Below are positions 27,483 through 45,014 of a stretch of 64,000 nucleotides of DNA, in pieces. This stretch comes from Dehalococcoidia bacterium. GTDB lineage: Bacteria; Chloroflexota; Dehalococcoidia; Bin125. The notes under the pieces were generated by a model. That model worked only from the letters and a program-made list of their open reading frames with translations, was not told where the DNA came from and searched no databases. The stretch spans positions 109,471 through 173,470 of the forward strand of contig JAJEJC010000001.1 of assembly GCA_022828105.1 (NCBI GenBank), read 5' to 3'. The position numbers and the translations under genes are program-made. Within the stretch, counting starts at the first letter, position 1. Each line of letters begins with the position of its first letter.

Positions 27483-28319
27483 GTGGCCAGGCTGGACCTG
27501 CACATGCACAGCACCCGCTCGGACGGCCGCCACGCGCCGGCGTGGGTCGTCCAACAGGCCGCAGCGCAGGGCGCTGAGCTGATCGCGCTCTCCGACCACG
27601 ACACCCTCGCCGGCGTCGAAGAGGCGCGCGAAGCGGGCAAACCGCTGAGCGTTACCGTCGTCGCCGCAGTCGAGGTCAGCGTCATTGATCAGGCATTGGG
27701 CGAGCTGCACGTGCTCGGCTATCTGCCGTCGCGCGACGAACTAGTCAACCTGGAACTGAAACTCTCGGAGTACCGCAACGAGCGCGTTGGCCGCGCGCGG
27801 CGCACGCTCGAACTGCTCCGGGATCTGGGCGCGGCCGTCGAGGAAGACGCGGTCTTGCGGCACGCAGACGGAGGCGTGATCGGCCGCCCGCATATCGCCC
27901 GGGCGCTGGTCGACGCGGGCCATGTCGAGTCCGTCCAGGAGGCCTTCGACCGCTTTTTGCACAACGGCGGCCCGGCTTTCGTCCAGCGCTCGGTGCTGAG
28001 CATGGAGGAATCGATCGAGCTGATTCACGGCGTCGGCGGCATCGCCTCGCTCGCTCACCCGACGCGATATCGGGAGACCGAAGCATCTATCGAGTCCTTC
28101 GCGGCGGCCGGTGGCGACGGAATCGAGATTTACTATCGCAACGACCCGCCTGATGTGGTCGCGAACGGCGAGCGGCTGGCGAGTCGACTTAGTCTCGTGG
28201 CGACCGGGGGCTCCGACTTCCATGGCATCCACCCCGACGAGATGCTGCCCGCGACAGTGCCGATCCCCGACCATGCCGCCGGGCGGCTGTTGGACTTGAT
28301 GAAAGACCTCGCCACATGA
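27483..28319 (+). CDS. PHP-family metal-dependent phosphoesterase
   Basis: [14 protein letters not shown]...ALSDHDT...LAHP...GGSDFHG are PHP His/Asp motifs. Confidence 0.8.
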
Positions 28320-28774
28320 CCGACTATCAGCTGCCGCTCGATGTCCGCGCCATCCAGCGGATCATCCCGCACCGATACCCGATCCTGCTGGTCGATCGGA
28401 TTGTCGAGCTTGAGCCGGGCGCGCGCGCCGTGGGGCTGAAGAACGTGTCGGCCAACGAATGGTTCTTTGAGGGCCACTTTCCCGGCAATCCGATCATGCC
28501 GGGTGTGTTGATCGTGGAGGCGCTTGCGCAGACGGGCGCGGTCGCGGCGCTCTCGGCGGATGAGTACAAAGACAAACTGGGCCTTTTCGCGGGAATCGAC
28601 GGCGTCCGTTTCCGCCGCCAGGTGGCGCCCGGCGATCAGCTCCGCCTCGAAGTCGAGATGGAACGTCTGCGCCGAGGGATCGGCCGGGCCGCTGCACGAG
28701 CCACGGTCGACGGCGACATCGCCGCCGAGGGTCGGCTCACCTTCGCCCTTGTTGATCCGCCCGACGAGGTCTAG
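28316..28774 (+). CDS. fabZ: 3-hydroxyacyl-ACP dehydratase FabZ
   Basis: [19 protein letters not shown]...[27 protein letters not shown] is the hot-dog fold catalytic motif. Confidence 0.93.
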
Positions 28775-29346: not shown

Positions 29347-32300
29347 TTACCACGTATCGACGTATGGGCGTTTCTTGCCCGTTCGATGCGGCGTGGGCGG
29401 CAGCCGCTTGATGCCGTTGGTGATCCAAGTGCGGGTCTCGGCCGGATCGATCACATCGTCGAGGCCGCCGCCGGCGGCCGCGTTGACCGCCTTGGCGTTG
29501 TGGTAAGCCCGGTCGACCATCTTCTCGTAGGTCTCGATCCGCTCCTCCGAGTCTTCGATCGCGATCAGTTCTTTGCGATAGCCGAGCTTGACCGAGCCCT
29601 CGATGTTCATACCGGCGAATTCGGCCGTCGGCCAGGCGACCGTGAAGAAGCCGACCAGGGCGCTGGCGCCGCACATCGCCTGGACGCCCAGCCCGTACGC
29701 CTTGCGCACGACGACGCCGAAGAGCGGCACGCTGAGGTTGGCGCCGGTGTTGAACATCCGCGCGCAGTGGCGCACCAGCGCGGTCGCCTCAACGTCGGGG
29801 CCGACCATCATCCCGGGACAGTCCATCAGGCTCAGCACGGGAATGTCGAATGCGTCGCAAAGCTGGAGGAAGCGCGCGCCCTTGTCTGATCCGTCGGAGT
29901 CGATTGCGCCGGCGAGATGGTGCGGGTTGTTGGCGATCACGCCGATTGGGTGTCCTTCGACGCGGATAAATGCGGTAATGATCCCGATCCCGAACTGCTC
30001 GCGGATCTCGAGCACCGAGCCTTCATCGGCGATGGTGTCGATGATCTCGCGCATGTCATAGAGACGCAGCCGATTCTCAGGCACGATGTGCCGCAAGCGG
30101 CGCTGGTCGGGCGCGGTCCAGTCTGCGATTGGACCCTGGAAGTAGCTCAGGTACTTCTTGGCCACCTCGGTCGCTTCGTCTTCGTCCTTGCAGAGGATGT
30201 CGACGACCCCGTTCGGGACCTGGAACGACATCGGCCCGACTTCCTCGGGTGTGTAGATGCCGAGTCCGCCGCCTTCGATCATCGCCGGACCGCCCATGGC
30301 GACGGTTGAGCCCTCGGTGGCGATGATCACGTCGCAGCAGGCGAGCAGCGCGGTGTTGCCGGCGAAACAGCGGCCGTTGGTCACGCCAACCAGCGGCACC
30401 AGACCGGAGAGCTTGGAGAACTGCGTGAAGGTATAAGTGTCGAACGCGACGCCGGGACCGGTGCGGTCATCGCCCGGCCGCCCGCCGCCACCCTCGGTGT
30501 AGAAGACTATCGGGAACTGGAAGCGCCGCGCCATCTCAAACATGCGGTCCTGCTTGTAGTGGTTGCGACCGCCCTGCGTCCCCGCGAGCACGGTGTAGTC
30601 GTAATGCACCACAATCGCCCGCGCCGCCTGCTCGTCGAACAGGTCGCCGTTGATCGTCGCGGTGCCGGCCAGCAGGCCGTCGGCGGGCGTGTTCTCGCGA
30701 AGTTGCTCATCAGTGTTGCGCTGATGTTGGCGCGCGACGATCAGCGGCCAGTATTCCTGGAACGAGCCGGGATCGACGAGCTGCTCGATGTTCTCGCGCG
30801 GCATCCGGAAGCCCCGCGCGAGCCGTTTGGACACCGCCTCGGGTCGGTGCTCGTCCAGCGTGTAGGCGTGGCGTTCGTAACTCTCCTGCAGGTCGGGACG
30901 GATGAAGTCGGGATCGATCAGTTCACCGCCGCCGATCGCTTCGACCGAGACCTCCGCTTCGAGGATGAAGACGAGCGGGAATCCCTCGCGGATCACGTCT
31001 CCGACCGAGCAGGCGACGCCTTTGATCACGCCGTCGCGATCGGCCTGGATCACATGCTCCATCTTCATCGCTTCCATCGCGACGAGATCCTGACCCTGCC
31101 GCACCTCCTGGCCTTCTTCGACCATGATCGAAACAATCGTGCCCTGAATCGGCGCCGGCAGACCGATCGAACCCTCGGGTCCGGTGAGATCAGGAGCGTC
31201 CTCTGCGATGTCCTGGGTTGACTGCTCTTGCTTGACTCGCTGGTCGTGCTCGAACAGCGCCAGCGGATCGCGAGAGTCGACCCGCGCGCCGGCGAAGCCG
31301 GAGTCGGCCGCAGGCGCATCGGTTCTCAGGTAGCGGACGCGGTCGGTCCCGTTGGTGGCTGCCAGCTCCGACATCTGCTCATCGACCCAGCGCGTGTGCA
31401 CGCGGCCGCTGGCCAGATCATCATGACGGAGCACGTTGCCGAGGAAGGGAATGTTGGTCGCGACGCCCTCGATTCGGAACTCAGACAATGCCCGAAGCGA
31501 GCGGGTCACGGCGTCGGCAAAGTCTGGCGTGGTCGAGTGCGCGATCACCTTGGCCAGCAGCGAGTCGAACGCGGTCGAGGTCTGGTAGCCCACATAGCCA
31601 AACCCGTCGGTGCGGACGCCCGGGCCGGACGGGGCTTCGTACGCCTTGAGCACTCCTGCGGCAGGGCGGACCTCGCCGTCGGCGGTCAGCGTCTCCATGT
31701 TGACGCGCGTCTGAATCGCGAACCCGCGCGGCCGGAGCCAGGAGGGATCGTCCAGGCCGAGGTCGGCAATGCTTGCGCTCTGGGCAACTCGCAGTTGCGA
31801 CTGGACCAGGTCGACACCGGTGACCTGCTCGGTCACGGTGTGCTCAACCTGCAGCCGCGCGTTGGCCTCGAGGAAGTAGAAGCGGTCGTCCGAACCATCC
31901 GATGCGTCAAGCAGAAACTCGAACGTGCCCAGCGACAAGTAGCCGACGTCGCGGGCGATCTGCACCGCCGCGTCGACGATGTCGTCGCGCGTTTCTTGTT
32001 CCAGGTGCGGCGCCGGTGCAATCTCGACGATCTTTTGGAATCGCCGCTGGACCGAGCACTCGCGTTCCCAGAGATGGGCGACGCCGCCGTGTAGATCGCC
32101 GATGATCTGCACTTCGATGTGCCGCGCTCGGGGGATGAGCTGCTCGACGTACAGTGCGCCGGAACCAAACGCCATCTGCGCCTCGGATTCGCAGCGCTGC
32201 CAGGCCGATTCGAGTTCATCGAATTGGTGCACCGCCCGCGAGCCGCGACCGCCGCCACCGGCGACCGCTTTGATCATCAATGCTGCGCTGTCGCCGAGCG

Positions 32301-32757
32301 ATTCGAAAAATTCCGCCGCTTCGCTCAGACTGACCGACTTGTCCGACCCTTCGATCACGGCCACGCCCGCCTCGCGGGCCGCCTGTCGCGCCCTGACCTT
32401 GTCGCCGAACAGATCGAGCAGGTGCGGCGTCGGGCCGACGAATGTGATGCCCGCGTCGCGGCAGGCGCGGGCGAAGTCGGCCGACTCGGCCAGGAATCCG
32501 TAGCCGGGATGGACGGCGTCGCAACCGGCCGATTGCGCCGCGGCGATCAGCCCGTCGATGTCGAGGTACGCGGGCACGCCGAGTCCGTCGAGCGCGACCG
32601 CTTCATCCGCCGCGTGGACGTGCAGCGAGCGGTCGTCGTCCTGCGAGTAGACCGCAACCGTGCCGATACCGAGGTCGGACGCCGCGCGAGCGACGCGAAT
32701 GGCGATCTCGCCACGATTGGCGATCAACAGCTTGGACACGGCTCTACTCGGCGGCAT
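29347..32757 (-). CDS. single-chain acyl-CoA carboxylase (biotin carboxylase + BCCP + carboxyltransferase fused, 1136 aa)
   Basis: N-terminal BC (LLIANRGEIAIRVARAA...ATP-grasp), central biotinyl domain (EAMKMEH) and a C-terminal AccD/PccB-like carboxyltransferase (GGGGRPGDD...MGGPAMIEGGGLG...MDCPGMMVGPDVE). Confidence 0.9.
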   Translation of the reverse strand: MPPSRAVSKLLIANRGEIAIRVARAASDLGIGTVAVYSQDDDRSLHVHAADEAVALDGLGVPAYLDIDGLIAAAQSAGCDAVHPGYGFLAESADFARACRDAGITFVGPTPHLLDLFGDKVRARQAAREAGVAVIEGSDKSVSLSEAAEFFESLGDSAALMIKAVAGGGGRGSRAVHQFDELESAWQRCESEAQMAFGSGALYVEQLIPRARHIEVQIIGDLHGGVAHLWERECSVQRRFQKIVEIAPAPHLEQETRDDIVDAAVQIARDVGYLSLGTFEFLLDASDGSDDRFYFLEANARLQVEHTVTEQVTGVDLVQSQLRVAQSASIADLGLDDPSWLRPRGFAIQTRVNMETLTADGEVRPAAGVLKAYEAPSGPGVRTDGFGYVGYQTSTAFDSLLAKVIAHSTTPDFADAVTRSLRALSEFRIEGVATNIPFLGNVLRHDDLASGRVHTRWVDEQMSELAATNGTDRVRYLRTDAPAADSGFAGARVDSRDPLALFEHDQRVKQEQSTQDIAEDAPDLTGPEGSIGLPAPIQGTIVSIMVEEGQEVRQGQDLVAMEAMKMEHVIQADRDGVIKGVACSVGDVIREGFPLVFILEAEVSVEAIGGGELIDPDFIRPDLQESYERHAYTLDEHRPEAVSKRLARGFRMPRENIEQLVDPGSFQEYWPLIVARQHQRNTDEQLRENTPADGLLAGTATINGDLFDEQAARAIVVHYDYTVLAGTQGGRNHYKQDRMFEMARRFQFPIVFYTEGGGGRPGDDRTGPGVAFDTYTFTQFSKLSGLVPLVGVTNGRCFAGNTALLACCDVIIATEGSTVAMGGPAMIEGGGLGIYTPEEVGPMSFQVPNGVVDILCKDEDEATEVAKKYLSYFQGPIADWTAPDQRRLRHIVPENRLRLYDMREIIDTIADEGSVLEIREQFGIGIITAFIRVEGHPIGVIANNPHHLAGAIDSDGSDKGARFLQLCDAFDIPVLSLMDCPGMMVGPDVEATALVRHCARMFNTGANLSVPLFGVVVRKAYGLGVQAMCGASALVGFFTVAWPTAEFAGMNIEGSVKLGYRKELIAIEDSEERIETYEKMVDRAYHNAKAVNAAAGGGLDDVIDPAETRTWITNGIKRLPPTPHRTGKKRPYVDTW

Positions 32758-32873: not shown

Positions 32874-35372
32874 TCAGTCAACGGCCACCCTCTCGCCGGC
32901 CCGCACATCGTCCATCGTCCCGCTGATGCCCCGTTCGACCAGCGAGCGGTACTCCGCCTCGGTCATCCCCAACTCCTGGGCAAACACCTCGAACGAGTGT
33001 TGGCCGACGCATGGCGACGGCCTGAGCTGCCGATCTTCCGACCCGCTGAATCGCCACGGCGCGCCCGGCAGCCACGACGGTCCGACCTCGGGATGCTCGA
33101 CCGACTGCACGAATCCGTTGGCCAGGTAGAGCGGGTCGGGCTCCATGAACTGCTCGTACGGCTTCGCCACCCGTGCGGCGTCCATGCCGAGCTCCAGGAG
33201 TCGGCGCTCCACGGAGTCCGCAGGTTGAGACGAGGTCCAACCGCCGATGATCTCGTCAAGCGCCGACTCGTTGCGTTTGCGAGATGCGGCGTCCATGAAT
33301 CGCGGATCAGCCGCCAGTTCGTGCGCCCCCAGTTCGAGACAGAGGGACGTCCACTCGGACTCGCTGCCGACCGCAATCGCGACCCACTCGTCGTCGCCCG
33401 CGCAGGGGAAGACGTTGTGCGGCGCGCGCTCACGGTCGCGATTGCCGAGCGGGACCGGCAAGCGGCCGGTGGCGTCGTACTCGGCGATCGCGTCGCCGAC
33501 GACCACGCCCATCGCCTCAAGCATGGCCACGTCGATCCGTTGTGGTCCGCCGACTCGTTCGCGGCGAGCCAGCGCGGCGATCACGGCCGCGGCCATCGCA
33601 TAGCCGGAGATCGAGTCGGGATACAGGCCGCCCGTATTCATGCCCGGGTCGCCGTCGTAGCCGTGGATCGAGGACAGTCCCGACATCGGTTCGGTCGTCG
33701 CGCCGTTGGCAGGATAGGCGGAGAAGGGTCCGGTCACGCCGTAGCCCGAGATCGAGGCAAGGATCACGTCGGGGCGCCGTGCGGCCAACGCGTCCAGGGT
33801 GATCCCCCAGCCGTCCAGCACGCCGGGCCGGAAATTCTCGCAGACGACATCGAAGTTCGGCATCATGCGCCAAAAGATGTCCTTGCCCTCGTCGGTGTTC
33901 AGATCGAGCGTGATTCCGCGCTTGTTCAGATTGACCGCGTTGTAGACCCCCTGCGTGTTCTCGGGATGTTGCGTCTTCGACTCGTCCAGGACCGCCTTGC
34001 CGACCCAGGGCCGCAGCAGCCGCCAGATGTCGATCCGACGCAGCGCTTCGATCTGCACCACGTCCGCGCCCAGGAATCCCAGCAGCTCCGTGCCAAACGT
34101 CCCGCTCCACGCCTGCGTGAAGGTCAGGATGCGGATGCCGTCGAGCGGACCGTTCGAGGTCGGCGGTGAGCCCCCCACTGCCTTCGGCATCTCCCCCCGC
34201 TTCGCGGGGGGAGAGCGGCGATCCTGGTCCGCTCCCAGCCTTGGCGCCGGCGATCCTTGCGACCAGCTTGGCGGGGAGATCGGATGCAGATCGCCCGACG
34301 CGCGCACCGTCCGCCCCTCGATCTCTGTCTCGACGATGAACCCGCGCGATTGCAACTGTTCGTTTTCGACCAGCTCCGGAATCGTCTGCAGCACCCCGGA
34401 GATGCAGCGCAGCGCGGCCAGTCTGTGGAACAGCGGCCACTTCTGCATCGCCGGCAGCTCGCGAGCCACGCCCGCCACGACGGCGGTCAAGTCCTGCGAG
34501 TAGCGTTGGTTGCGCGCCTGCAACTCCTCGCGCGCGCCCTGGTCGGGCAGATTGAACAGCGCCATCGCCTCGCGCCAGTTGTGCCAGTCGCCGAAGCCAA
34601 AGTTCATCCGCCCGTCGGCGGCGTCCCAGAGCGGTCCCGGCTCGCCGCGAGGCCGGCCGCCGGTCGCGCCGCGCGACCAGCCGCTGCCCTGGTAGATCGC
34701 GCCGATGGTCCAGGGGTAGACGGTGTGCGTCATCGCCTCAATCTCGCGGACATCGACCAGTTCAGGAGCGGCAGACTCGGAGCGACGACGCAAGGCAGCG
34801 GTCGCGGCGACGAACGCGGCGAGTCCGCCCATGTAGCCGAACTGGCGCGAGGGCAGCGAGAGCGGTGGCTCGTCCTGGAGTGCGTTCACGTGCGCCCAGC
34901 CGCAGCGCGCATTCAGCGTCAGGCTGCTGCCCGGCGCATTCGCCATCGGACCTTCCAGTCCATAGGGCGTGACCGAGAGATGAACCGCGTCGGGCCGCAT
35001 CGCCGTAAGCGGCCAATCCGAGAGCGCGCTCGGGCCATCGGTCGTCACCACCACATCGGCCGCGGCGATCCACGGCTCGGACTCTGCCTCGTCGGCGATT
35101 ACGACCGAGCGCTTGCCCCAGTTGACGTAGGCGTGCAGCGCCGAGCGCTCGACGCCGGCTTGGTCGTCGAGGAAGGGCGCTTCATGCCGGAGCGGATGAC
35201 CCTCGGGCGGCTCCAACATCACCACCTCTGCGCCGTGGTCGGCGAACAGCCGAGCCGCGAACGCTCCCGACATCCGCCGCGACAGGTCAACCACCAGCAG
35301 GCCGTCGTAAGCGGGAACAAGCTCCTCGGTCATTGCGTCGCTCACCCAATGCTCAGTGTGATTCAGCATCAC
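32874..35372 (-). CDS. tandem-fused family III (CaiB/BaiF) CoA-transferase, two complete domains in one 832-aa ORF
   Basis: Domain 1 (LVVDLSRRMSGAFAARLFADHGAEVVMLEPPEG) and domain 2 (IRILTFTQAWSGTFGTELLGFLGADVVQIE) are each about 400 aa. The linker contains a repeat-element copy in frame. Confidence 0.82.
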   Translation of the reverse strand: MMLNHTEHWVSDAMTEELVPAYDGLLVVDLSRRMSGAFAARLFADHGAEVVMLEPPEGHPLRHEAPFLDDQAGVERSALHAYVNWGKRSVVIADEAESEPWIAAADVVVTTDGPSALSDWPLTAMRPDAVHLSVTPYGLEGPMANAPGSSLTLNARCGWAHVNALQDEPPLSLPSRQFGYMGGLAAFVAATAALRRRSESAAPELVDVREIEAMTHTVYPWTIGAIYQGSGWSRGATGGRPRGEPGPLWDAADGRMNFGFGDWHNWREAMALFNLPDQGAREELQARNQRYSQDLTAVVAGVARELPAMQKWPLFHRLAALRCISGVLQTIPELVENEQLQSRGFIVETEIEGRTVRASGDLHPISPPSWSQGSPAPRLGADQDRRSPPAKRGEMPKAVGGSPPTSNGPLDGIRILTFTQAWSGTFGTELLGFLGADVVQIEALRRIDIWRLLRPWVGKAVLDESKTQHPENTQGVYNAVNLNKRGITLDLNTDEGKDIFWRMMPNFDVVCENFRPGVLDGWGITLDALAARRPDVILASISGYGVTGPFSAYPANGATTEPMSGLSSIHGYDGDPGMNTGGLYPDSISGYAMAAAVIAALARRERVGGPQRIDVAMLEAMGVVVGDAIAEYDATGRLPVPLGNRDRERAPHNVFPCAGDDEWVAIAVGSESEWTSLCLELGAHELAADPRFMDAASRKRNESALDEIIGGWTSSQPADSVERRLLELGMDAARVAKPYEQFMEPDPLYLANGFVQSVEHPEVGPSWLPGAPWRFSGSEDRQLRPSPCVGQHSFEVFAQELGMTEAEYRSLVERGISGTMDDVRAGERVAVD
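34158..34205 (+). repeat. REP/MITE-like element copy inside the CoA-transferase inter-domain linker (GAGCCCCCCACTGCCTTCGGCATCTCCCCCCGCTTCGCGGGGGGAGAG)
   Basis: Translated in frame as ...SPPAKRGEMPKAVGGSPP... between the two CoA-transferase domains. Confidence 0.8.
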
Positions 35373-35428: not shown

Positions 35429-36958
35429 ATGGCGAGTTACGACGACATCATCATCGGTGCGGGTTCGGCGGGTGCGGTGATTGCGGCTCGGTTGTCGGAG
35501 GACCCGAACCGGCGTGTGCTGTTGTTGGAGGCGGGACCGGATTACACGCGGGTCGAGGACATGCCGCGCGACCTGCTCAAGCCGTGGGTATCGTGGCGCG
35601 ACCACGACTGGGGCTTCCAGGCCAACGCCCGCCACGGCCGCGAGTTCCCCCTGCATCGCGGCAAGGTGATGGGCGGCTCATCGGCCGTCAACGGGACCAT
35701 CGCCTTGCGCGGCGTTCCCGGCGATTTCGAGTCGTGGGTCGCGATGGGCTGCGACGAGTGGGGCTTCGAAGACGTCCTGCCCTACTACCGGCGTCTTGAG
35801 TCCGATCCCGAAGGCGGCGACTTCCACGGTCGGTCGGGGCCTGTGCCGATCGAGCGCGAGCCGGAAGAGAACTGGCAGCCGTTGCAGCGGGCCTTCTACG
35901 ACGCCTGCCGCGACAACGGATTCGACGATGTCTGGGACCACAATTTGCCCGACGCGACCGGCGTCGGGCCCTGGCCGCGCAACCGCAGCAACGGCAACCG
36001 CATGTCGACCAACATCGCCTACCTGCTCGGCATCCGCGACCGCCCCAACCTCACCATCCGCCACGGCGTGCTGGTCGACCGGCTGAGCTTCGACGCCGAG
36101 TCCGGCGCGCGCGTCAACGGCGTCGTGCGGGCCGACGGCGAAGTCATTCACGCCGATCGCGTCTGCGTCTCGGCCGGCGCGGCGGTGTCGCCGGCGATCC
36201 TGCTGCGCAGCGGGATCGGACCCGCCGAAAAGCTTGGCCCGCACGGGATCGCACAGCGGGCGGCGCTGCCCGGCGTCGGCGAGAACCTGATCGACCACTT
36301 TGGCACCGGGGTGCAGGCGTTTCCCAGGCCGGAGGTCGTTCACGATCCCGACGTCGTCACCGAGATCGGCGTGCGCTACACCGCGCCCGGCTCGGACCAG
36401 TTCAACGACATGCAGCTCGCGATCTCGACGATCTGGGACGAGGAGCAGGTGCGCGGTCTGACCGAGGCGCCGCGCCGGCATCCATCGTTCGGGATCGGCG
36501 CGGTGATCCAGCGCCCGAACTCGCGAGGATCGGTGACGCTGCGCTCGACCGACCCGTCCGACCAGCCGCAGCTCGACATGAACTACGCCTCGCATCCCGA
36601 AGACCTGCGCCGGCTGATGGACGGTTTGCGGCTGTCCTGGGAGATCATGCACTCGGACGCGATCATGCCGTTCGTCGAGCGCGTGATCGCGCCGCGGCCC
36701 GAGGTGATCGAGTCCGACAACGCCCTGGCCGACTACATCCTCCGCACCACGTCCACCACGTGGCACATCTGCGGCTCGGCCCGCATGGGCCAACCGACCG
36801 ACCCGCTGGCCGTCACCGATCAGCGAGGCCGCGTCCATCAGGTCGACAACCTCAGGGTCGCCGACACCTCAATCATGCCCAACATCGTGAGCTGCAATAC
36901 CAACCTGACCGCAATCATGATCGGCGAGCGGGTGGCGGAGTCGATGCAGAGCGACTGA
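35429..36958 (+). CDS. GMC-family FAD-dependent oxidoreductase
   Basis: DIIIGAGSAGAVIAARLSEDPNRRVLLLEAGP is the Rossmann motif, and C-terminal GMC signatures are present (HICGSARMG, NLRVADTSIMP). Confidence 0.9.
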   Translation: MASYDDIIIGAGSAGAVIAARLSEDPNRRVLLLEAGPDYTRVEDMPRDLLKPWVSWRDHDWGFQANARHGREFPLHRGKVMGGSSAVNGTIALRGVPGDFESWVAMGCDEWGFEDVLPYYRRLESDPEGGDFHGRSGPVPIEREPEENWQPLQRAFYDACRDNGFDDVWDHNLPDATGVGPWPRNRSNGNRMSTNIAYLLGIRDRPNLTIRHGVLVDRLSFDAESGARVNGVVRADGEVIHADRVCVSAGAAVSPAILLRSGIGPAEKLGPHGIAQRAALPGVGENLIDHFGTGVQAFPRPEVVHDPDVVTEIGVRYTAPGSDQFNDMQLAISTIWDEEQVRGLTEAPRRHPSFGIGAVIQRPNSRGSVTLRSTDPSDQPQLDMNYASHPEDLRRLMDGLRLSWEIMHSDAIMPFVERVIAPRPEVIESDNALADYILRTTSTTWHICGSARMGQPTDPLAVTDQRGRVHQVDNLRVADTSIMPNIVSCNTNLTAIMIGERVAESMQSD

Positions 36959-37024: not shown

Positions 37025-38707
37025 TTATGGCACGCCCGACTTCTGCGGCCTCGCCGATGCCAACGACCTGACATGCGGGGCGAACGCCCTTGCGCCATTC
37101 GGCGAGGAGCCGTTGGCTGAGAGTGCCGGCTGTGGAGATGCCTCGGGACCGCCCAGCGACGTGGCCTGCTCGAGGCGTTGACGGCGGGGGACCAGGATCC
37201 AGCCGACGACGCCCGCGACCACGGCGAAGCTGATCCCGAAGAAGAAGGTGCGCTTGATCGACTGCACGAACGAGTCGGTCAGGGTCGCCTGCACGTCTGC
37301 GGCGATGCCGGGATCGAGTCCCGGCAGCAGGTGATAGGCCGCGCCGATGCCCGAGGCCATCGTGTCGATGTCGGCGGTGGAGAGCGGCAGACCGCTGAGG
37401 CCGTCGCGGACGCCGGAGGCGTACATCACGGCGGCGAAACTGCCGAGGATGGCGATCGACATCGTGCCGCCCAACTCCTGGCCGGTCGTGGTCACCGCCG
37501 ACGCTTTGCCGGCCATGTCGACCGGCACGGCGGCCATCGAGGTATCGGTCGTGGCCGGCATATGCAGAGAGCCTCCGATGCCAAGCCAGGCGAGCGCCAG
37601 TCCGACCATCCAGTAGGGCGTGTCGACCGCCAGCACCAGGGCCAGGATCAGCAGGCAACCGCCGCCGTGCATGGTCGGCGCCCAGAAGAGCAGGAATCGC
37701 GGACCGACCCTGGGCAGGATGAACCCGGCGATCGGCGCGCAGACGATCATCACGACGGCCAGCGGCATCACGCGCAGGCCGCTCTCGGCGGCCGAGACGC
37801 CCTGCACAAGTTGGAAGAACTGGGGCAGATAGAACAACACCCCCATCAACGCGAACATGATGAAGAACATGCCGACCATTGCGCCGACGAAGTCGCGTTG
37901 CTTGAAGAATCCAAGCGGCATCAGCGGCTGCTCGGTGCGCCGCTCGATCAGGATGAACGCCGAAAGCGAGAGCACGGCCACCGTGATCGTGGCGAGGATC
38001 ACCGGGTCGTCCCAACCGCGCGGGATGCCTTCGATGATCGAAAAGACCAGCGCCAGCATGCCGACCGTGCCGGTCAGCGCGCCGGGCACATCGAGTCGGG
38101 TGTGCAACACGGACTTGGTCGAGGGCACGATGGTCAAGGCGACCAGCGCCAGCGCCGACAGCGGGGCGGGCACCCAGAAGACGGCCGACCAGTCGATCTG
38201 ATCGACCAGCGTCCCGCCCAGGAACGGGCCCAGGGCCATGCCGATACCCATTGCCCCGGCCCAGATACCGAACGCCTTGCTGCGCTCCCGGCGCGGGAAC
38301 ACCGCGGTCAGCGTGGACAGCGTCTGAGGTAGCACGAGCGCGCCGCCGATTCCCTGCAATCCGCGGCCGATGATCAGGAAGTTGGCGTCGGGCGAGAAGG
38401 CTACGCCGATCGATGCGATGGTGAACACGGTGAGACCGATGCCGAGGATCCGGCGGCGGCCGAAGCGGTCGCCCAGCGCGCCGGCCAGCAGCAGCAGGCC
38501 GCCGAACAGCACCAGGTAGACGTCGACGACCCAGAGCGACTGCGACTCGGACATCTCGAAGACGCGCTTGATCGTCGGCAGCGCCGTGTTCACGATCGTC
38601 GCGTCGAGCGAGACGATGGTCTGCGATCCGGCAAGGATTGCCAACACGACCCAGCGCCGTCGCGGGCTGACGTCGACGGAGGCGACGATGCCGTCGGCGG
38701 CACTCAC
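37025..38707 (-). CDS. MFS transporter, DHA2 (14-TM) family
   Basis: LDATIVNTALPTIKRVFEMSESQSLWVVDVYLVLFGGLLLLAGALGDRFGRRR. Confidence 0.88.
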   Translation of the reverse strand: MSAADGIVASVDVSPRRRWVVLAILAGSQTIVSLDATIVNTALPTIKRVFEMSESQSLWVVDVYLVLFGGLLLLAGALGDRFGRRRILGIGLTVFTIASIGVAFSPDANFLIIGRGLQGIGGALVLPQTLSTLTAVFPRRERSKAFGIWAGAMGIGMALGPFLGGTLVDQIDWSAVFWVPAPLSALALVALTIVPSTKSVLHTRLDVPGALTGTVGMLALVFSIIEGIPRGWDDPVILATITVAVLSLSAFILIERRTEQPLMPLGFFKQRDFVGAMVGMFFIMFALMGVLFYLPQFFQLVQGVSAAESGLRVMPLAVVMIVCAPIAGFILPRVGPRFLLFWAPTMHGGGCLLILALVLAVDTPYWMVGLALAWLGIGGSLHMPATTDTSMAAVPVDMAGKASAVTTTGQELGGTMSIAILGSFAAVMYASGVRDGLSGLPLSTADIDTMASGIGAAYHLLPGLDPGIAADVQATLTDSFVQSIKRTFFFGISFAVVAGVVGWILVPRRQRLEQATSLGGPEASPQPALSANGSSPNGARAFAPHVRSLASARPQKSGVP

Positions 38708-38773
38708 GGCGCGTCCGCTGCGTGGTCGGGGGTCCTGGCAGGCATGCTCATTACGGCAAGGCTACCGAACGCG

Positions 38774-40510
38774 CTAGGGCACGCCCGACTTCTGGGGACG
38801 CACCAACGCCGTTGCCTGCGCAGCAAGGCGGAGGTCGCCCGCGCCGTTGGCGGATGCGCCGGCCGGTCGGGCGGCGGTCCGACCGTTGGCCGAGGCGCCG
38901 TTGGCGGCGGCCTCCGGGGCCAGGGTCAACTTGCATGAGGAATCGACGGGCTTGCCGTCTTCCCACTGCATCTGTGTCTGACGTTGCCGCTTGGGGACCA
39001 GGATCCAACCGACTACCCCGGAAATGAGCGCGAAGATGATGCCGAAGCGCATCGTGTCGGTGATCGCGTCGACGAAGGACTCGCGCAGCACGAGTTGGGT
39101 CTCCTGGAGCAGCGATGCATCCAGCGTCGGCAAGACCTGCTGCGCCGCCCCGATGCCGGTCGCGAGGATTTCCACGGACTGTTCCGGCAGTCCAATTGGA
39201 GCAAGCCCTGAGTTGACCCCGGAGGAGTACACGGCTGCAGCGAAGGAACCGAGAATCGCAATCGCCAGCGTGCCGCCGAGCTGGCGTCCGGCATTGTTGA
39301 CCGCCGACGCTTTGCCAGCCAGGTCGACCGGCACCGAGGCCATCGCCGTGTCGGTGGTGGCCGGCATATGCATCGCGCCGCCCATACCGAGGAAGGCCAG
39401 GCCCAGGCCGATTATCCAGTAGGGCGTGTCGATATCGAGGACGAAGCTGAACAACAGCAGCGCCCCGCCGCCGTGGATCGCAGGAGCCCAGAAGAGCATG
39501 AAGCGTGGACCCAGCACCGGCAACAGGCGCGCCGCGACCGGCGCGAAGAACATCATCATTAGCGCCAGCGGCATCAGCCGCGCGCCGCTCTCGGTGGCCG
39601 ACATGCCCTGCACCAGTTGGAAGAACTGCGGCATGTAGAACATGACGCCCATCAAGGCGAACATGATGAAGAACATCCCGATCATCGACCCGGTGAAGTC
39701 GCGCTGCTTGAAGAACGCCATCGGCAGCAGCGGCTGATCGGTGCGCCGCTCGATGATGATGAACAGCAGCGCCGACACGATCGCGACCGCGAACGATCCC
39801 ACGATCAGCGAGTCGGTCCAGCCCTTCTGGATGCCCTCGATGATTGCGAAAACGATGGCGACCATGGCGATCGTGCCGGTGATCGCGCCGGGCACGTCGA
39901 GCTTGGTGTGCAACTGCGAGCGCGACTCCGGCACCACCGCCATGCCGAGCATCGACAGCGCCGCGATCGGCGCGGGCACCCAGAAGACGCCCGCCCAGCC
40001 GATCAGGTCGACGAGCACGCCGCCGACCAGCGGGCCGAAGGCCATGCCGAATCCCATCGCGCCGGCCCAGATGCCGATTGCCCGGCCTCGTTCCTCGCGC
40101 GGGAAGACCGCAGTCAGGATCGACAGCGTCTGCGGGATCACGAGCGCGCCGCCGAGACCCTGGAGACCGCGTCCGACGATCAGGAAGTTGGCATCGGGCG
40201 AGAAAGCCACCGCGATCGAGGCGGCGACAAAGATGCCCATGCCGATCATCAAGGTCTTGCGGCGACCGAAGCGGTCGCCCAGCGCGCCGGCCAGGAGCAG
40301 CAGGCCGCCGAAGATCACCATGTACGCGTCGGCGACCCAGAGCGATTGCGACTCCGACATCTCGAAGGCGCGTTTAATCGCGGGCAGGGCGGTGTTGATG
40401 ATCGTCGCGTCGAGCTGGACCAGCATCTGCGCGCCGGCCAGCACCAGCAGGATCGCCCAACGGCGCCGGTTCGTCGCCGGCCCCGCGCTCGTCGTCGGCT
40501 GAGCGCTCAT
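38774..40510 (-). CDS. MFS transporter, DHA2 family (tandem paralog of the downstream gene)
   Basis: LDATIINTALPAIKRAFEMSESQSLWVADAYMVIFGGLLLLAGALGDRFGRRK, which is about 60-70% identical to the neighbouring gene. Confidence 0.88.
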   Translation of the reverse strand: MSAQPTTSAGPATNRRRWAILLVLAGAQMLVQLDATIINTALPAIKRAFEMSESQSLWVADAYMVIFGGLLLLAGALGDRFGRRKTLMIGMGIFVAASIAVAFSPDANFLIVGRGLQGLGGALVIPQTLSILTAVFPREERGRAIGIWAGAMGFGMAFGPLVGGVLVDLIGWAGVFWVPAPIAALSMLGMAVVPESRSQLHTKLDVPGAITGTIAMVAIVFAIIEGIQKGWTDSLIVGSFAVAIVSALLFIIIERRTDQPLLPMAFFKQRDFTGSMIGMFFIMFALMGVMFYMPQFFQLVQGMSATESGARLMPLALMMMFFAPVAARLLPVLGPRFMLFWAPAIHGGGALLLFSFVLDIDTPYWIIGLGLAFLGMGGAMHMPATTDTAMASVPVDLAGKASAVNNAGRQLGGTLAIAILGSFAAAVYSSGVNSGLAPIGLPEQSVEILATGIGAAQQVLPTLDASLLQETQLVLRESFVDAITDTMRFGIIFALISGVVGWILVPKRQRQTQMQWEDGKPVDSSCKLTLAPEAAANGASANGRTAARPAGASANGAGDLRLAAQATALVRPQKSGVP

Positions 40511-40965
40511 GCCATCCGCCAGCGCGGCTGGACCAGGTCGTCGGCCGTCCGCTCAAAGACGACCCGGACCGGCGCGCCGATTTGCATCGCGCCGCCCAGG
40601 GGCGCGTCGACGATCGTTCCCATTAGTTTGATCTCGGGCACGTCGTCGAGTTCGACCAGCGCCACAACGTAGGGTCCGAACTCACGCAGCGAGGGGTGCG
40701 CCGGATGCACGACTTCGACCCAGGACCAGACTGTCCCGGTACCCGCCACTTCTTCCCAATCCATGTTGAAGCTGTAGCAGCTGTGGCAGATCAGCTCGGG
40801 CGGATACTGGTGAGCGACGCAGTCGGTACAGGACTGGACGACGAGCCGCCCTTCGGCTGCGGCGTCAAAGTAGCCGGCGTTGATTGGGCATTCGGGGTCG
40901 GGCGCGGTCATCCCATCGGGAAAGAACGGCTCGTCGAGGAACTCTGAGGCGGGTCGGGTCGTCAT
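40507..40965 (-). CDS. DUF35 / OB-fold zinc-ribbon protein (thiolase partner family)
   Basis: Cys4 ribbon (CTDCVAHQYPPELICHSC) plus an OB-fold. Its stop overlaps the MFS start (ATGA). Confidence 0.75.
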   Translation of the reverse strand: MTTRPASEFLDEPFFPDGMTAPDPECPINAGYFDAAAEGRLVVQSCTDCVAHQYPPELICHSCYSFNMDWEEVAGTGTVWSWVEVVHPAHPSLREFGPYVVALVELDDVPEIKLMGTIVDAPLGGAMQIGAPVRVVFERTADDLVQPRWRMA

Positions 40966-41982: not shown

Positions 41983-43194
41983 TCAGTTGCGGAAGATCGC
42001 CGAAGAGATAGGCGCAGAGGCTGGGCCTGCCGCGACGATGCAGGTCCGCGCGCCTTCGACCGGAGTGGTGGAGTCGCCGCGCAACTGGCGCACCGCCTCG
42101 ACGGCGAGGTTGAATCCGTGCGTGTAGGCCTCGGCGAGATTGCCGCCCGAGGTGTTGATCGGGAACTCGCCCGCATGCGGCGCGCTCGGATCGGCGACCT
42201 GCCTCGCCTCCAGCCGGCCGCCCTCGCAGAACGGTCCGCCTTCGCCGACCGCGCAGAACTTGTGATCCTCGAACGAGGTCAACACCTGACCGGTGAAGTT
42301 CTCGTAGAACTGGCCGCAGTCAATCTCGTCGGGTCCCATGCCGGCTGCCGAGTAGAGCCGATCGACCATCGTCGTGTAGTTCGAACTCATGAAATCGTCG
42401 TGCCAGAAGCCGTCGACGACATTGCCCTGGCGGTGCCCGGATCCCTGCACCGACGCGGCGAGGTAGACCGGCGTGTCGGTGAAGTCCTTCGCGATCTCGG
42501 CCGTGGTCAGGATCATGGCTGCCGCGCCGTCGGTCTCGAGGCAGCAGTCATAGAGGCGGTAGGGGTCGGCGATCATCCTGGAGTTCTGGTGGTCTTCCAG
42601 CGTGATCGGCCGTCCGTTCATTACAGCGCGAGGATTGTTCTGGGCATGCTTGTTGGCGGCGACGGCGATCTGTCCGAGTTGCGCCGAGGTCGTGCCGTAC
42701 TCATGCATGTGGCGCTGCATCTTCATCGCGAGGAACTGCGCGGGCGACATCAGACCTTGCGGCACGTTGAAGGCGTACTGGCCGCGCAATCGACCGCCGC
42801 GGCGCGACTGACCGAAGCGACCGAACTCGCCCTGCGCCAGCGCCCGATAGACGACCACGAAGTTGGCGTAGCCGGCAACGATCCCGGCCGCCGCGTTGCC
42901 GATTGCGGCGCAAACGCCCCCGCCGCCACCGCCGTAGACCATCGAGGCGAAGGCGTAGTGGGGCAGATCCAGCGCGGTCGAGAGGCGGTTGGGGTCGTTG
43001 CGGTCGGCCGAGTAGGAGGAGAAGCCGTCCAACATCCGAGGTTCGAGTCCCGCGTCGGCACAGGCGGCGAGAATTGCCTCGAGCGCCAGGCGAAACTCCG
43101 GGCGGCCGACCCGGCCGTGCTTCGTGTACTCGGTCTCGCCGACACCGATCACGGCTACGCGGTCGCGGATGTTGCGGTCGTACTCGTATGCCAT
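41983..43194 (-). CDS. thiolase-like protein (SCP-x / DUF35-associated lipid-transfer type)
   Basis: MAYEYDRNIRDRVAVIGVGETEY...GGGGGGVCAAIGNAA...PINTSGGNLAEAYTHGFN. The start is ATG 43192-43194; the 941-aa track ORF is a GC-driven upstream extension. Confidence 0.85.
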   Translation of the reverse strand: MAYEYDRNIRDRVAVIGVGETEYTKHGRVGRPEFRLALEAILAACADAGLEPRMLDGFSSYSADRNDPNRLSTALDLPHYAFASMVYGGGGGGVCAAIGNAAAGIVAGYANFVVVYRALAQGEFGRFGQSRRGGRLRGQYAFNVPQGLMSPAQFLAMKMQRHMHEYGTTSAQLGQIAVAANKHAQNNPRAVMNGRPITLEDHQNSRMIADPYRLYDCCLETDGAAAMILTTAEIAKDFTDTPVYLAASVQGSGHRQGNVVDGFWHDDFMSSNYTTMVDRLYSAAGMGPDEIDCGQFYENFTGQVLTSFEDHKFCAVGEGGPFCEGGRLEARQVADPSAPHAGEFPINTSGGNLAEAYTHGFNLAVEAVRQLRGDSTTPVEGARTCIVAAGPASAPISSAIFRN

Positions 43195-43278
43195 GTCAGC
43201 CTCCCTCGACTCAGAGGAGGGTAGGCGATCGCTCGGGGCTATCCTCAACTCGCATTCCTTCAGAGAGGGAGTTTCGAC

Positions 43279-44571
43279 ATGACCGACTTTGCCAACCTGC
43301 CCGTTGCCGAACCTGCGTCGTTGGGGATCGATCCTGATCGGCTTGCCCGCACCGATGCGCGCATGGCTCAGGCGGTCGAGAACCGCGAAGTGCCCGGCGT
43401 GGTGACCGTGTTGATCCGGCACGGACACCTTGCCCACGTCTCGGCGCACGGCTACCTCGACGCCGGACGGGAGACTCCCTTGCCGTTCGACGCGCTGTTC
43501 CGCATGTACTCGCAGACCAAGCCGGTCACGGCGGCGCTGACGATGCAGTTGCAGGAAGAGGGCGTCTTCTACGTCGACGAGCCGATCACGAAGTGGCTGC
43601 CTGAGTTCGAGCATCGGCAGGTGCTGGCCCCGTTCGATCCGCCCAACAAGGTGCGCGGCGAGGGTCTGCTGATGGGTCAGACGGTACCGATGACAAGGCA
43701 GATCACGATTCGCGATCTGCTGACGATGACCTCGGGTCTGCCTTCGTTCAGCAACATTCCCTCGGCGATGTTCCCGATGCTCGAACCGGCCTGGAGCGGG
43801 ACGGAGTTCGGCATCACCAATCCGGGCGTCGTCGATACGTCGGTTTCGGCGGAGACGCGCGTGCTGCAGATGGCGCAGTTGCCCAACGCGAGGCAGCCAG
43901 GCGCGGCCTGGGAGTACGCCGCCGACTTCGACGTGCTGACCCTGCTGCTCGAACGCGCCGCTGGTCAGAACCTCGACGCGCTGTTCCAGGAGCGTATCTT
44001 CGGCCCGCTCGGGGTCGAAGGCTGCGGCTTCTATTGCCCGCCCGAGGACGCCGATCGCCTCGTCACCAACCACCACTGGTCCGAGACGGACGCGCTCAAC
44101 CCTGTGGAGCGTCCCGAGGACTCGCACAAGGTGCGTGAGTCGGTGGGGCAGCAGATCTCCGGCAACGGCCTCTACGGAGGCGTTTTGATGACGCCTGCGG
44201 CCTACACACGATTCGCCGCGATGCTGCTCAACGGCGGCGAGCTTGACGGTCAGCGCGTGCTGGGTCGGAAGACGATCGAGCTGATGACCTCGAATCATCT
44301 CGGCGCGATTTGCGGCACCGAAATCGACCTGACCGGCCCCGGTTACGGCTTCGGTTTCGGCTACGCGGTCCGCGACCGGATTGCGGGGACGGCCTACCCG
44401 GGCAGCATCGGCACCTACGGCTGGGGCGGCGCGGCGGGGACGTGGTTCTTCGTCGACCCGTCCGAGAACCTGGCCGGCCTCTTCTTCACCCACGTCTTCA
44501 TGTACCAGTTCAACCCGGCCGCGTACCTGGAGACGGACTTCGAGAAGGGCGTCTACGAGGCGTTGATGTAG
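43279..44571 (+). CDS. beta-lactamase/transpeptidase-like serine hydrolase (class C / esterase family)
   Basis: SQTK (SxxK), a PF00144-like architecture and C-terminal GWGGAAGTWFFVDP. Confidence 0.85.
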   Translation: MTDFANLPVAEPASLGIDPDRLARTDARMAQAVENREVPGVVTVLIRHGHLAHVSAHGYLDAGRETPLPFDALFRMYSQTKPVTAALTMQLQEEGVFYVDEPITKWLPEFEHRQVLAPFDPPNKVRGEGLLMGQTVPMTRQITIRDLLTMTSGLPSFSNIPSAMFPMLEPAWSGTEFGITNPGVVDTSVSAETRVLQMAQLPNARQPGAAWEYAADFDVLTLLLERAAGQNLDALFQERIFGPLGVEGCGFYCPPEDADRLVTNHHWSETDALNPVERPEDSHKVRESVGQQISGNGLYGGVLMTPAAYTRFAAMLLNGGELDGQRVLGRKTIELMTSNHLGAICGTEIDLTGPGYGFGFGYAVRDRIAGTAYPGSIGTYGWGGAAGTWFFVDPSENLAGLFFTHVFMYQFNPAAYLETDFEKGVYEALM

Positions 44572-44573
44572 CG

Positions 44574-45014
44574 TCATTCGCGTTCCGGCAGCGATCGCCA
44601 GAGCGCCGCGGCCAGGAAGGGCAGGATGATCACCTGGCCATAGGCGCCGGGCGGCGGCTTGTCGATGTTGAGCGGCTTGGATCGGCCGACGAGGATGCGT
44701 CCGATGTTGTCCAGGAGGTTGATCAACAGGATCAGGGGGATCAGTCCTCGATAGCGGATCAGGGCGAGCCAGGCGAGGCCGGCAAGGAGGAGTTGTTCGA
44801 GTCCCCATTGGGCGAAGATGGCGACGATGTTCTGGCCGCCCGCGACATCGAGGTCTATCCCGGCGATGGAGGCGGCGCCACCGTCTTTGCGAAAGACGTG
44901 GACGCAGCTTCGGAAGGTGATGACGAGGCAGAGGAAGAGGTAGAACCTGGTGACCCAGGGATCGCCCTGATAGGTCTTGGCGTCGTCGGGGAGGATTGAA
45001 CTGACGGATCGCAC
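44574..45014 (-). CDS. hypothetical membrane protein
   Basis: Three to four hydrophobic segments with no recognisable family. Confidence 0.4.
   Translation of the reverse strand: MRSVSSILPDDAKTYQGDPWVTRFYLFLCLVITFRSCVHVFRKDGGAASIAGIDLDVAGGQNIVAIFAQWGLEQLLLAGLAWLALIRYRGLIPLILLINLLDNIGRILVGRSKPLNIDKPPPGAYGQVIILPFLAAALWRSLPERE

Follow-up and report, generated by a model that had tools for sequence, protein, structure and literature searches.

A subclade of single-chain acyl-CoA carboxylases recurrently encoded beside a fused family-III CoA-transferase

Long-chain acyl-CoA carboxylases (LCCs), a family reportedly described by Tran et al. in 2015, carry biotin carboxylase (BC), biotin carboxyl carrier protein (BCCP) and carboxyltransferase (CT) domains on a single polypeptide. 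Here we report on one such enzyme and on the fused CoA-transferase gene upstream of it, CoAT2x, both encoded in a 64,000-nt stretch of the genome of a Dehalococcoidia bacterium (GenBank assembly GCA_022828105.1, contig JAJEJC010000001.1, positions 109,471 to 173,470; this whole stretch is hereafter called the window). The closest solved enzyme is MapLCC, the LCC of M. avium subsp. paratuberculosis (PDB 4rcn), as presented in PMC6491548 and PMC4673880. The former describes characterised LCCs as homohexamers taking C2–C16 acyl-CoAs, and gives a Km of MapLCC for palmitoyl-CoA that is 350-fold lower than for acetyl-CoA. LCCs are described as rare, and as somehow tied to carbon and nitrogen metabolism, in the literature accessible to us. 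The family has a solved structure yet no established physiological role, and a recurrent partner gene offers a testable handle on its substrates. The window LCC falls in a subclade with altered active-site motifs, whose genes frequently lie directly behind a CoAT2x gene.

A single-chain carboxylase of the LCC family

The LCC open reading frame (ORF) begins with ATG and is a genuine gene, a chance ORF being excluded. Its third-position GC is 0.83 versus 0.66 overall, and homologues number more than 8000, including full-length proteins of 70–96% identity. Close homologues are labelled 'Chloroflexi/Chloroflexota bacterium', and the nearest species-level genome with one is a Dehalococcoidia metagenome-assembled genome (MAG; locus L002, 89% identity). 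The names given to homologues in databases mislead, examples being 'carbamoyl-phosphate synthase large subunit' and 'ATP-grasp domain-containing protein'.

Pfam analysis returned five matches, all well beyond the curated cut-offs: Biotin_carb_N (residues 7–113; 1.4e-40), CPSase_L_D2 of the ATP-grasp type (119–330; 1.1e-57), Biotin_carb_C (349–459; 5e-28), Biotin_lipoyl (535–597; 1e-14) and Carboxyl_trans (646–1114; 2.8e-75). This map and the located motifs agree with the initial annotation, which had read a BC, an EAMKMEH biotinyl domain and an AccD/PccB-type CT from one 1136-aa ORF. EAMKMEH occupies residues 562–568, with K565 as the biotinyl-lysine. The BC motifs GGGGRG (167), QKIVEIAPAP (241) and EANARLQVEH (297) are unbroken, as is the CT motif EGGGGRPGD (755); we take these four to be catalytic, as in E. 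coli BC and PccB. In an alignment with homologues of 71–90% identity, the BC, AMKM and CT motifs are invariant. BC, biotinylation motif and CT are all predicted to be catalytically competent, as befits a member of the family.

Among all PDB sequences, the best match of the full protein was 4rcn_A (1036 bits), colinear over the whole length in two stretches (query 8–469 with chain 3–470, and query 529–1114 with chain 487–1071), followed by the CT (5fif) and BC (5h80) domains of the Deinococcus single-chain carboxylase. The CT domain alone scored 613 bits against 4rcn and 547 against 5fif and, in other families, 234 against 12S transcarboxylase, ~200 against PCC beta and 127–134 against MCC/GCC beta. 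Identity to MapLCC was 48% in BC and 56% in CT, while the window CT was 49.5% identical to the Deinococcus CT, 33% to 12S and ~26–33% to two-subunit enzymes. A CT-domain phylogeny had been proposed along with the initial assignment to the single-chain LCC-type family. Run as a neighbour-joining tree of 87 CT domains, it placed the window protein with MapLCC and the Deinococcus enzyme in a single clade, apart from the PccB/AccD-type beta subunits of two-subunit enzymes, and together with the colinearity to 4rcn it upholds that assignment. Judged by its sequence—BC-BCCP-CT in one chain, with a CT inside the LCC clade—the window protein is clearly a member of the LCC family. Because its CT resembles 12S and PCC more than MCC and GCC, the reaction is most likely carboxylation of an acyl-CoA at the alpha-carbon, as in PCC/12S-type CTs.

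LCC-clade CTs also occur in BCCP-CT proteins of ~590–650 aa for which no BC domain is encoded within 10 kb (L039–L056; for example L040:5350-7251 and L045:10010-11836, with CTs 51–57% identical to the window CT), hosted by Solirubrobacterales, Comamonadaceae/Burkholderiales, Myxococcota and Acidimicrobiia. Proteins of this form must either obtain a BC in trans or work as transcarboxylases or decarboxylases. Another set of loci from the genome scan, L059–L081, had been caught by the EAMKMEH pattern; these are ordinary two-subunit carboxylases and were dropped.

The window protein is part of a monophyletic subclade of LCCs with at least 73% CT identity. Sampled hosts of this subclade comprise Dehalococcoidia-type and Anaerolinea-type Chloroflexota, Gammaproteobacteria/Pseudomonadales MAGs, a Caulobacteraceae MAG and, among Acidobacteriota, a Vicinamibacteraceae MAG and Candidatus Multivorans. 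Since CT identity between the Chloroflexota, Acidobacteriota and Gammaproteobacteria members is ~80%, the distribution suggests that the subclade spread laterally.

Inspecting the CT alignment revealed 21 positions that are invariant in 15 subclade sequences and each shared by no more than 10% of 54 other LCCs. These private residues include T802 and A806 (FAGNTALLAC), C980 (MDCPGMM versus DTPGFM), N1003 and A1031, as well as N1051/I1052, which produce GMNIEG; the first of these last two positions is Gly in 52 of the 54 other LCCs and in all 16 two-subunit enzymes. Given these 21 deviations, the chain-length preference of the window LCC may differ from that of MapLCC. The column of Gln1026 presumably corresponds to the PccB D422 specificity position; in the alignment, Deinococcus likewise has Gln here, MapLCC has Met, and two paralogues adjacent to a subclade member in locus L082 have Ile and Met. 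That locus (L082:781-13420) carries three consecutive LCC genes plus CoAT2x, and the differences between its paralogues in this putative specificity column (Gln, Ile or Met) suggest diversification in substrate. A second array (L088:1-18445) holds two LCCs, a split CT with a 75-aa BCCP, three CoA_transf_3 genes, TetR and an ABC transporter.

The BC-BCCP linker of the window LCC exceeds that of MapLCC by ~40 residues and carries a conserved motif, GFAGARVDSRDPLALF, at residues 485–505. The motif is common to some other LCC lineages, MapLCC-like ones not among them. Outside the subclade, it (AGA+xDxxDPLAxL) was present in all five LCC loci with a nearby CoA_transf_3 gene; such a gene accompanied 5 of 11 motif-bearing versus 0 of 13 motif-less loci, groups that are phylogenetically non-independent.

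A fused CoA-transferase as recurrent partner

CoAT2x matches the Pfam family CoA_transf_3 (5e-135) in two stretches. Both halves find their best PDB match in benzylsuccinate CoA-transferase (9fn0), the N-half in chain A (79.6 bits) and the C-half in chain B (188 bits). Because the halves match different BbsEF subunits, CoAT2x is the fused equivalent of a two-subunit family-III enzyme. In the C-half, Asp586 falls in the column of the active-site Asp of 4hl6 and 4ed9, where the N-half has Gly179. Across 12 aligned family members, conservation is strong in both halves and Asp586 is invariant. Fold and catalytic Asp place the predicted protein in family III (CaiB/BaiF/Frc), and with its BbsEF-like halves and invariant Asp586 it is plausibly active. 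The N-half, which has no catalytic Asp, is conserved as strongly as the C-half and includes the block GGRPRGEPGPLWDAADGRMNFGFGDWHNW (~residues 238–266); this hints at a conserved non-transferase role. More specific naming was not forthcoming: NCBIfam returned sub-threshold matches, to succinate/glutarate, oxalate and mesaconate transferases only, and the 25 plasmid matches listed of 1283 carry generic 'CoA transferase' names at 28–33% identity.

In the window, CoAT2x and LCC are co-directional, with CoAT2x upstream and a spacer of 116 nt that places GGAG seven bases ahead of the LCC ATG. The initial annotation had noted this order and guessed from the one adjacency at a dedicated carboxylation/CoA-transfer unit, a guess now supported by synteny that extends over two phyla and dozens of contigs from metagenomes. 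CoAT2x lies directly 5′ of the LCC gene in 10 of the 15 sampled subclade loci (L002, L007, L082, L083, L084, L085, L086/87 and L088). The L002 transferase is 73% identical to that of the window. In L007, from a gammaproteobacterial MAG, the order is MFS, PrsW, CoAT2x, LCC, and the transferase is 47% identical. L083 consists of TetR, an SBP_bac_5 ABC transporter, CoAT2x and LCC, the latter two overlapping by 4 nt; the overlap in L084 is 14 nt. As the genes overlap in these relatives, co-transcription seems likely in the window as well.

Starting instead from the transferase led to the same pairing. Three of three homologues (53–60% identity), one of them in L088, have an LCC of 1136–1139 aa immediately 3′. 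A metagenome scan seeded with the transferase alignment alone returned 80 loci, 64 of them evaluable (with 600 nt or more of downstream sequence). An LCC (62–89% identical) starts 3–283 nt past the transferase match in 34 of these 64, the genes often overlapping; one further locus has a CT-only gene, and four further ones an LCC elsewhere in the locus. Paired transferases reach down to 43% identity.

The other neighbours of the pair vary by lineage—MFS, an SBP_bac_5 ABC system with TetR, amidohydrolases, malate synthase—and the recurring core is therefore transporter, transferase and LCC. A search for a conserved third partner gene among these neighbours found none, malate synthase and amidohydrolase each being limited to one lineage. 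Malate synthase follows CoAT2x-LCC directly, on the opposite strand, in L129, L131, L133, L156 and L157, all from one low-GC marine lineage. Acid-activating enzymes and TetR are the most frequent neighbours at 33 LCC loci of more distant relationship (CoA_transf_3, 6; AMP-binding, 5; TetR, 5).

Proposed function and competing explanations

We put at roughly 65% the probability that the window LCC is an accessory biotin-dependent, ATP-driven carboxylase, working as a two-gene unit with the BbsEF-like fused transferase on an imported organic acid. CoAT2x would load the imported acid onto CoA at no ATP cost, and the LCC would then carboxylate the thioester: its BC domain would carboxylate the biotin on K565, and the BCCP would swing to the CT, which would pass the CO2 to the acyl-CoA, most likely to the alpha-carbon. 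Alternatively, CoAT2x might move CoA on or off the carboxylated product; since family-III enzymes often handle dicarboxylates, it could equally act there. An accessory character is what we infer from the tandem LCC paralogues of L082 and L088, differing at the specificity column, and from the apparent lateral spread.

Several observations weigh against this proposal. MapLCC accepts acetyl-CoA as a substrate in vitro (PMC6491548), and 572 nt past the LCC stop there is a fabZ-like gene; for both reasons, some contribution of the window LCC to housekeeping is conceivable. Five of the 15 subclade loci hold an LCC without the transferase, among unrelated genes (GST, NACHT, Cas1/Cas4, permeases), and no LCC is found near ~40% of CoAT2x relatives, which makes the pairing frequent rather than obligate. 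CoAT2x and LCC stand 116 nt apart in the window, and neither promoter nor terminator could be called there: a scan of 28.7–35.8 kb detected nothing promoter-like and showed terminator-like sites at chance level.

A bolder version of the proposal, which we regard as unlikely, makes CoAT2x and LCC a self-contained, possibly associated CoA-recycling machine, with ATP-dependent carboxylation of a free acid as the net reaction. The carboxylated acyl-CoA product would serve as CoA donor for the next imported acid, leaving CoA as a catalytic handle and a substituted malonate or dicarboxylate as net product, reminiscent of the Frc/Oxc oxalate cycle in the opposite chemical direction. GMNIEG (Gly to Asn) and MDCPGMM would then reflect a new substrate class, and the linker motif a docking site for the transferase. 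This would fit, because only transporter, transferase and LCC recur, without conserved downstream CoA-ester enzymes, and because the linker motif co-occurs with nearby CoA-transferase genes.

Alternatively, the LCC could be the housekeeping acetyl-CoA (or acetyl/propionyl-CoA) carboxylase that supplies malonyl-CoA for fatty acids, with the CoA-transferase as an unrelated neighbour. A FabA/FabZ-like dehydratase gene does lie just past the tRNA, and neither a second BC nor a second CT gene was found in the 64-kb window. PMC6491548 adds that LCC enzymes take C2 and C3 substrates in vitro, and that the essential ACC of Saccharopolyspora is a different multidomain carboxylase; yet the same paper reports the MapLCC Km for acetyl-CoA as 350-fold above that for palmitoyl-CoA. 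Cultured Chloroflexi have a multi-subunit ACC (PMC3199775), and separate ~500-aa BC subunits labelled ACC or PCC are common in Chloroflexota MAGs. The fabZ gene, moreover, is convergent and part of a housekeeping block (RNase Y, PHP, fabZ) that is absent around the LCCs of other lineages, whereas the pairing with CoAT2x is conserved, overlapping genes included. Weakened by this pairing, by the several LCC paralogues per locus, by a patchy distribution with ~80% CT identity across phyla and by the separate BC subunits, a housekeeping role now seems improbable to us.

A doubtful third explanation is a DddD-like module, in which CoAT2x would act as transferase/lyase on a beta-substituted propionate such as dimethylsulfoniopropionate (DMSP), and the LCC would carboxylate propionyl-CoA or an acryloyl-CoA-derived product, leading to methylmalonyl-CoA or a 3-hydroxypropionate route. 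In its favour, a GMC oxidoreductase lies beside CoAT2x, and DddA of Halomonas is an alcohol oxidoreductase of the GMC type. The source lineage is marine, as are most of the related contigs, and the CT is, outside the LCC clade, closest to 12S/PCC-type enzymes. DddD also resembles CoAT2x in having two CaiB-like domains in ~820 aa (PMC7174347), and is the best Swiss-Prot match of some SAR202 CoA-transferases (PMC5395668). However, none of the 120 CoAT2x homologues listed bears the name DddD, and the sub-threshold NCBIfam matches point to the three other transferase types only. The cluster has neither a BCCT transporter nor malonate-semialdehyde dehydrogenase, and thus not the gene content of a dddD operon (BCCT, dddB/C or dddA/C); known dddD operons, in turn, contain no carboxylase (PMC10664990). 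A search of the PDB for a DddD structure found none.

It is very unlikely that the two genes became neighbours by chance in particular lineages and that the LCC acts on long-chain fatty acyl-CoAs of general lipid turnover, the role proposed for MapLCC: although MapLCC prefers palmitoyl-CoA (PMC6491548) and one third of the subclade loci have no transferase, the pair recurs in Chloroflexota and Gammaproteobacteria amid otherwise different neighbours with transferase identity down to 43%, and the subclade departs from MapLCC at its 21 invariant CT positions, with Gln instead of Met in the PccB-D422 column.

The core enzyme is clearly a member of an already described family and as such not new. 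Searching the accessible literature for LCC combined with a family-III transferase returned nothing relevant; neither the subclade, with its changed active-site motifs, nor the recurrent pairing with a BbsEF-like transferase is described in that literature. The subclade is abundant in marine and probably sponge-associated SAR202-type Chloroflexota. Bacteria of the SAR202 type, which have expanded CoA-transferase families, have been proposed to degrade recalcitrant marine dissolved organic matter (PMC5395668), and a carboxylation step tied to a SAR202 transferase would, if true, add a defined reaction to the model of organic-matter degradation. Should the enzyme be an ordinary PCC or ACC, the finding shrinks to an improved annotation.

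Gene neighbourhood and comparison with known systems

The LCC gene separates two kinds of surroundings (Table 1). On its housekeeping side lie fabZ-like, PHP, RNase Y, recX-like, recA, proC, YggS-like and radical SAM genes and the dcw cluster; on the other, catabolic-looking side, CoAT2x, the GMC oxidoreductase, two MFS transporters, DUF35, beta-lactamase-like, thiolase-like and enolase-superfamily proteins. The GMC oxidoreductase next to CoAT2x is kept in close Chloroflexota relatives only. The tRNA-Asp is convergent with LCC, as first annotated, at a measured distance of 24 nt instead of the 25 nt then given; it adjoins LCC in the closest relatives only, and its adjacency therefore carries no functional weight. 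We also rejected it as an island integration site, the flanking gene order, including the housekeeping block, being kept in L002 and L084.

Table 1. Features of the LCC locus, in coordinates of the window.
Feature	Position	Strand	Basis
LCC-family single-chain acyl-CoA carboxylase, 1136 aa, BC-linker-BCCP-CT	29347..32757	(-)	Pfam; 1036 bits to 4rcn_A
Biotin carboxylase (ATP-grasp) domain, residues 7-459	31381..32739	(-)	Pfam; 48% identity to MapLCC BC; catalytic motifs located
BC-BCCP linker, residues 460-534, with conserved motif GFAGARVDSRDPLALF	31156..31380	(-)	alignment
Biotinyl (BCCP) domain, residues 535-597; biotinyl-lysine K565 at nt 31063-31065	30967..31155	(-)	Pfam, motif location
Carboxyltransferase domain, residues 646-1114, LCC clade; MDCPGMM (978), GMNIEG (1049)	29416..30822	(-)	Pfam, tree
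CoAT2x, fused tandem family-III CoA-transferase, 832 aa from GTG or 831 aa from ATG at 35369	32874..35372	(-)	Pfam, alignments
CoAT2x N-terminal half, ~residues 20-390; Gly179 in catalytic-Asp column	34203..35315	(-)	best PDB match 9fn0_A
CoAT2x C-terminal half, ~residues 405-816; catalytic Asp586 at nt 33615-33617	32925..34160	(-)	best PDB match 9fn0_B
FabA/FabZ-like dehydratase, convergent with LCC, 572 nt past LCC stop	28316..28774	opposite to LCC	
tRNA-Asp(GTC), convergent, 24 nt from LCC stop codon	29246..29322	(+)	
GMC-family FAD oxidoreductase, divergent from CoAT2x across ~57 nt	35429..36958	(+)	
Two paralogous MFS transporters (37025..38707, 38774..40510)	37025..40510	(-)	
DUF35-type (zf-ChsH2/OB_ChsH2_C) protein, 152 aa, 4-nt overlap with MFS start	40507..40965	(-)	
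Thiolase-like (Thiolase_C_1, SCP-x type) protein, 403 aa	41983..43194	(-)	

The thiolase-like gene lies near the DUF35 gene, a pairing that recalls BbsAB-type thiolases; the 941-aa ORF listed mechanically at 41983-44808 is an over-extension of the 403-aa gene called there. Further along, between 44000 and 56000, the plus strand has a strongly positive GC skew (+0.10 to +0.19) though the long ORFs lie on the minus strand; these encode enolase-superfamily, GmrSD_C-like, vWA and alpha/beta hydrolase proteins and two proteins without a Pfam match.

Among known carboxylases, PccA/PccB, AccA/AccD1-6 and 12S transcarboxylase share with the window LCC homologous BC, BCCP and CT domains, the order of the N- and C-subdomains of the CT, and Gly-rich motifs of the oxyanion-hole type; they differ in their separate alpha and beta chains, where the window LCC is one chain, and in forming a separate CT clade. 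The Deinococcus radiodurans single-chain carboxylase (5fif CT, 5h80 BC) shares the family and the Gln at the specificity column, but sits on another branch of the LCC clade and is without the subclade motifs.

For the transferase, the closest solved relative is BbsEF, succinyl-CoA:(R)-benzylsuccinate CoA-transferase (PDB 9fn0), whose two subunits are matched by the two halves of CoAT2x. In contrast to BbsEF, CoAT2x is one fused chain, sequence identity is low, and the window has no further bbs-type beta-oxidation genes except the DUF35 and thiolase-like genes 5–8 kb off. DddD, the DMSP CoA-transferase/lyase, was compared by architecture and operon: it shares the tandem CaiB-like domains and the length of ~820 aa (PMC7174347), whereas dddD operons differ in content from the CoAT2x cluster and are without a carboxylase (PMC10664990).

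MapLCC, finally, shares with the window LCC the single chain, the BC-BCCP-CT order, colinearity over the full length and the CT clade. Its BC-BCCP linker, however, is ~40 aa shorter and without GFAGARVDSRDPLALF, it has CDTPGFM and GMGLEG where the window LCC has MDCPGMM and GMNIEG, and Met in place of Gln in the PccB-D422 column; and, in distinction from MapLCC, the window LCC gene has a dedicated CoA-transferase partner gene.

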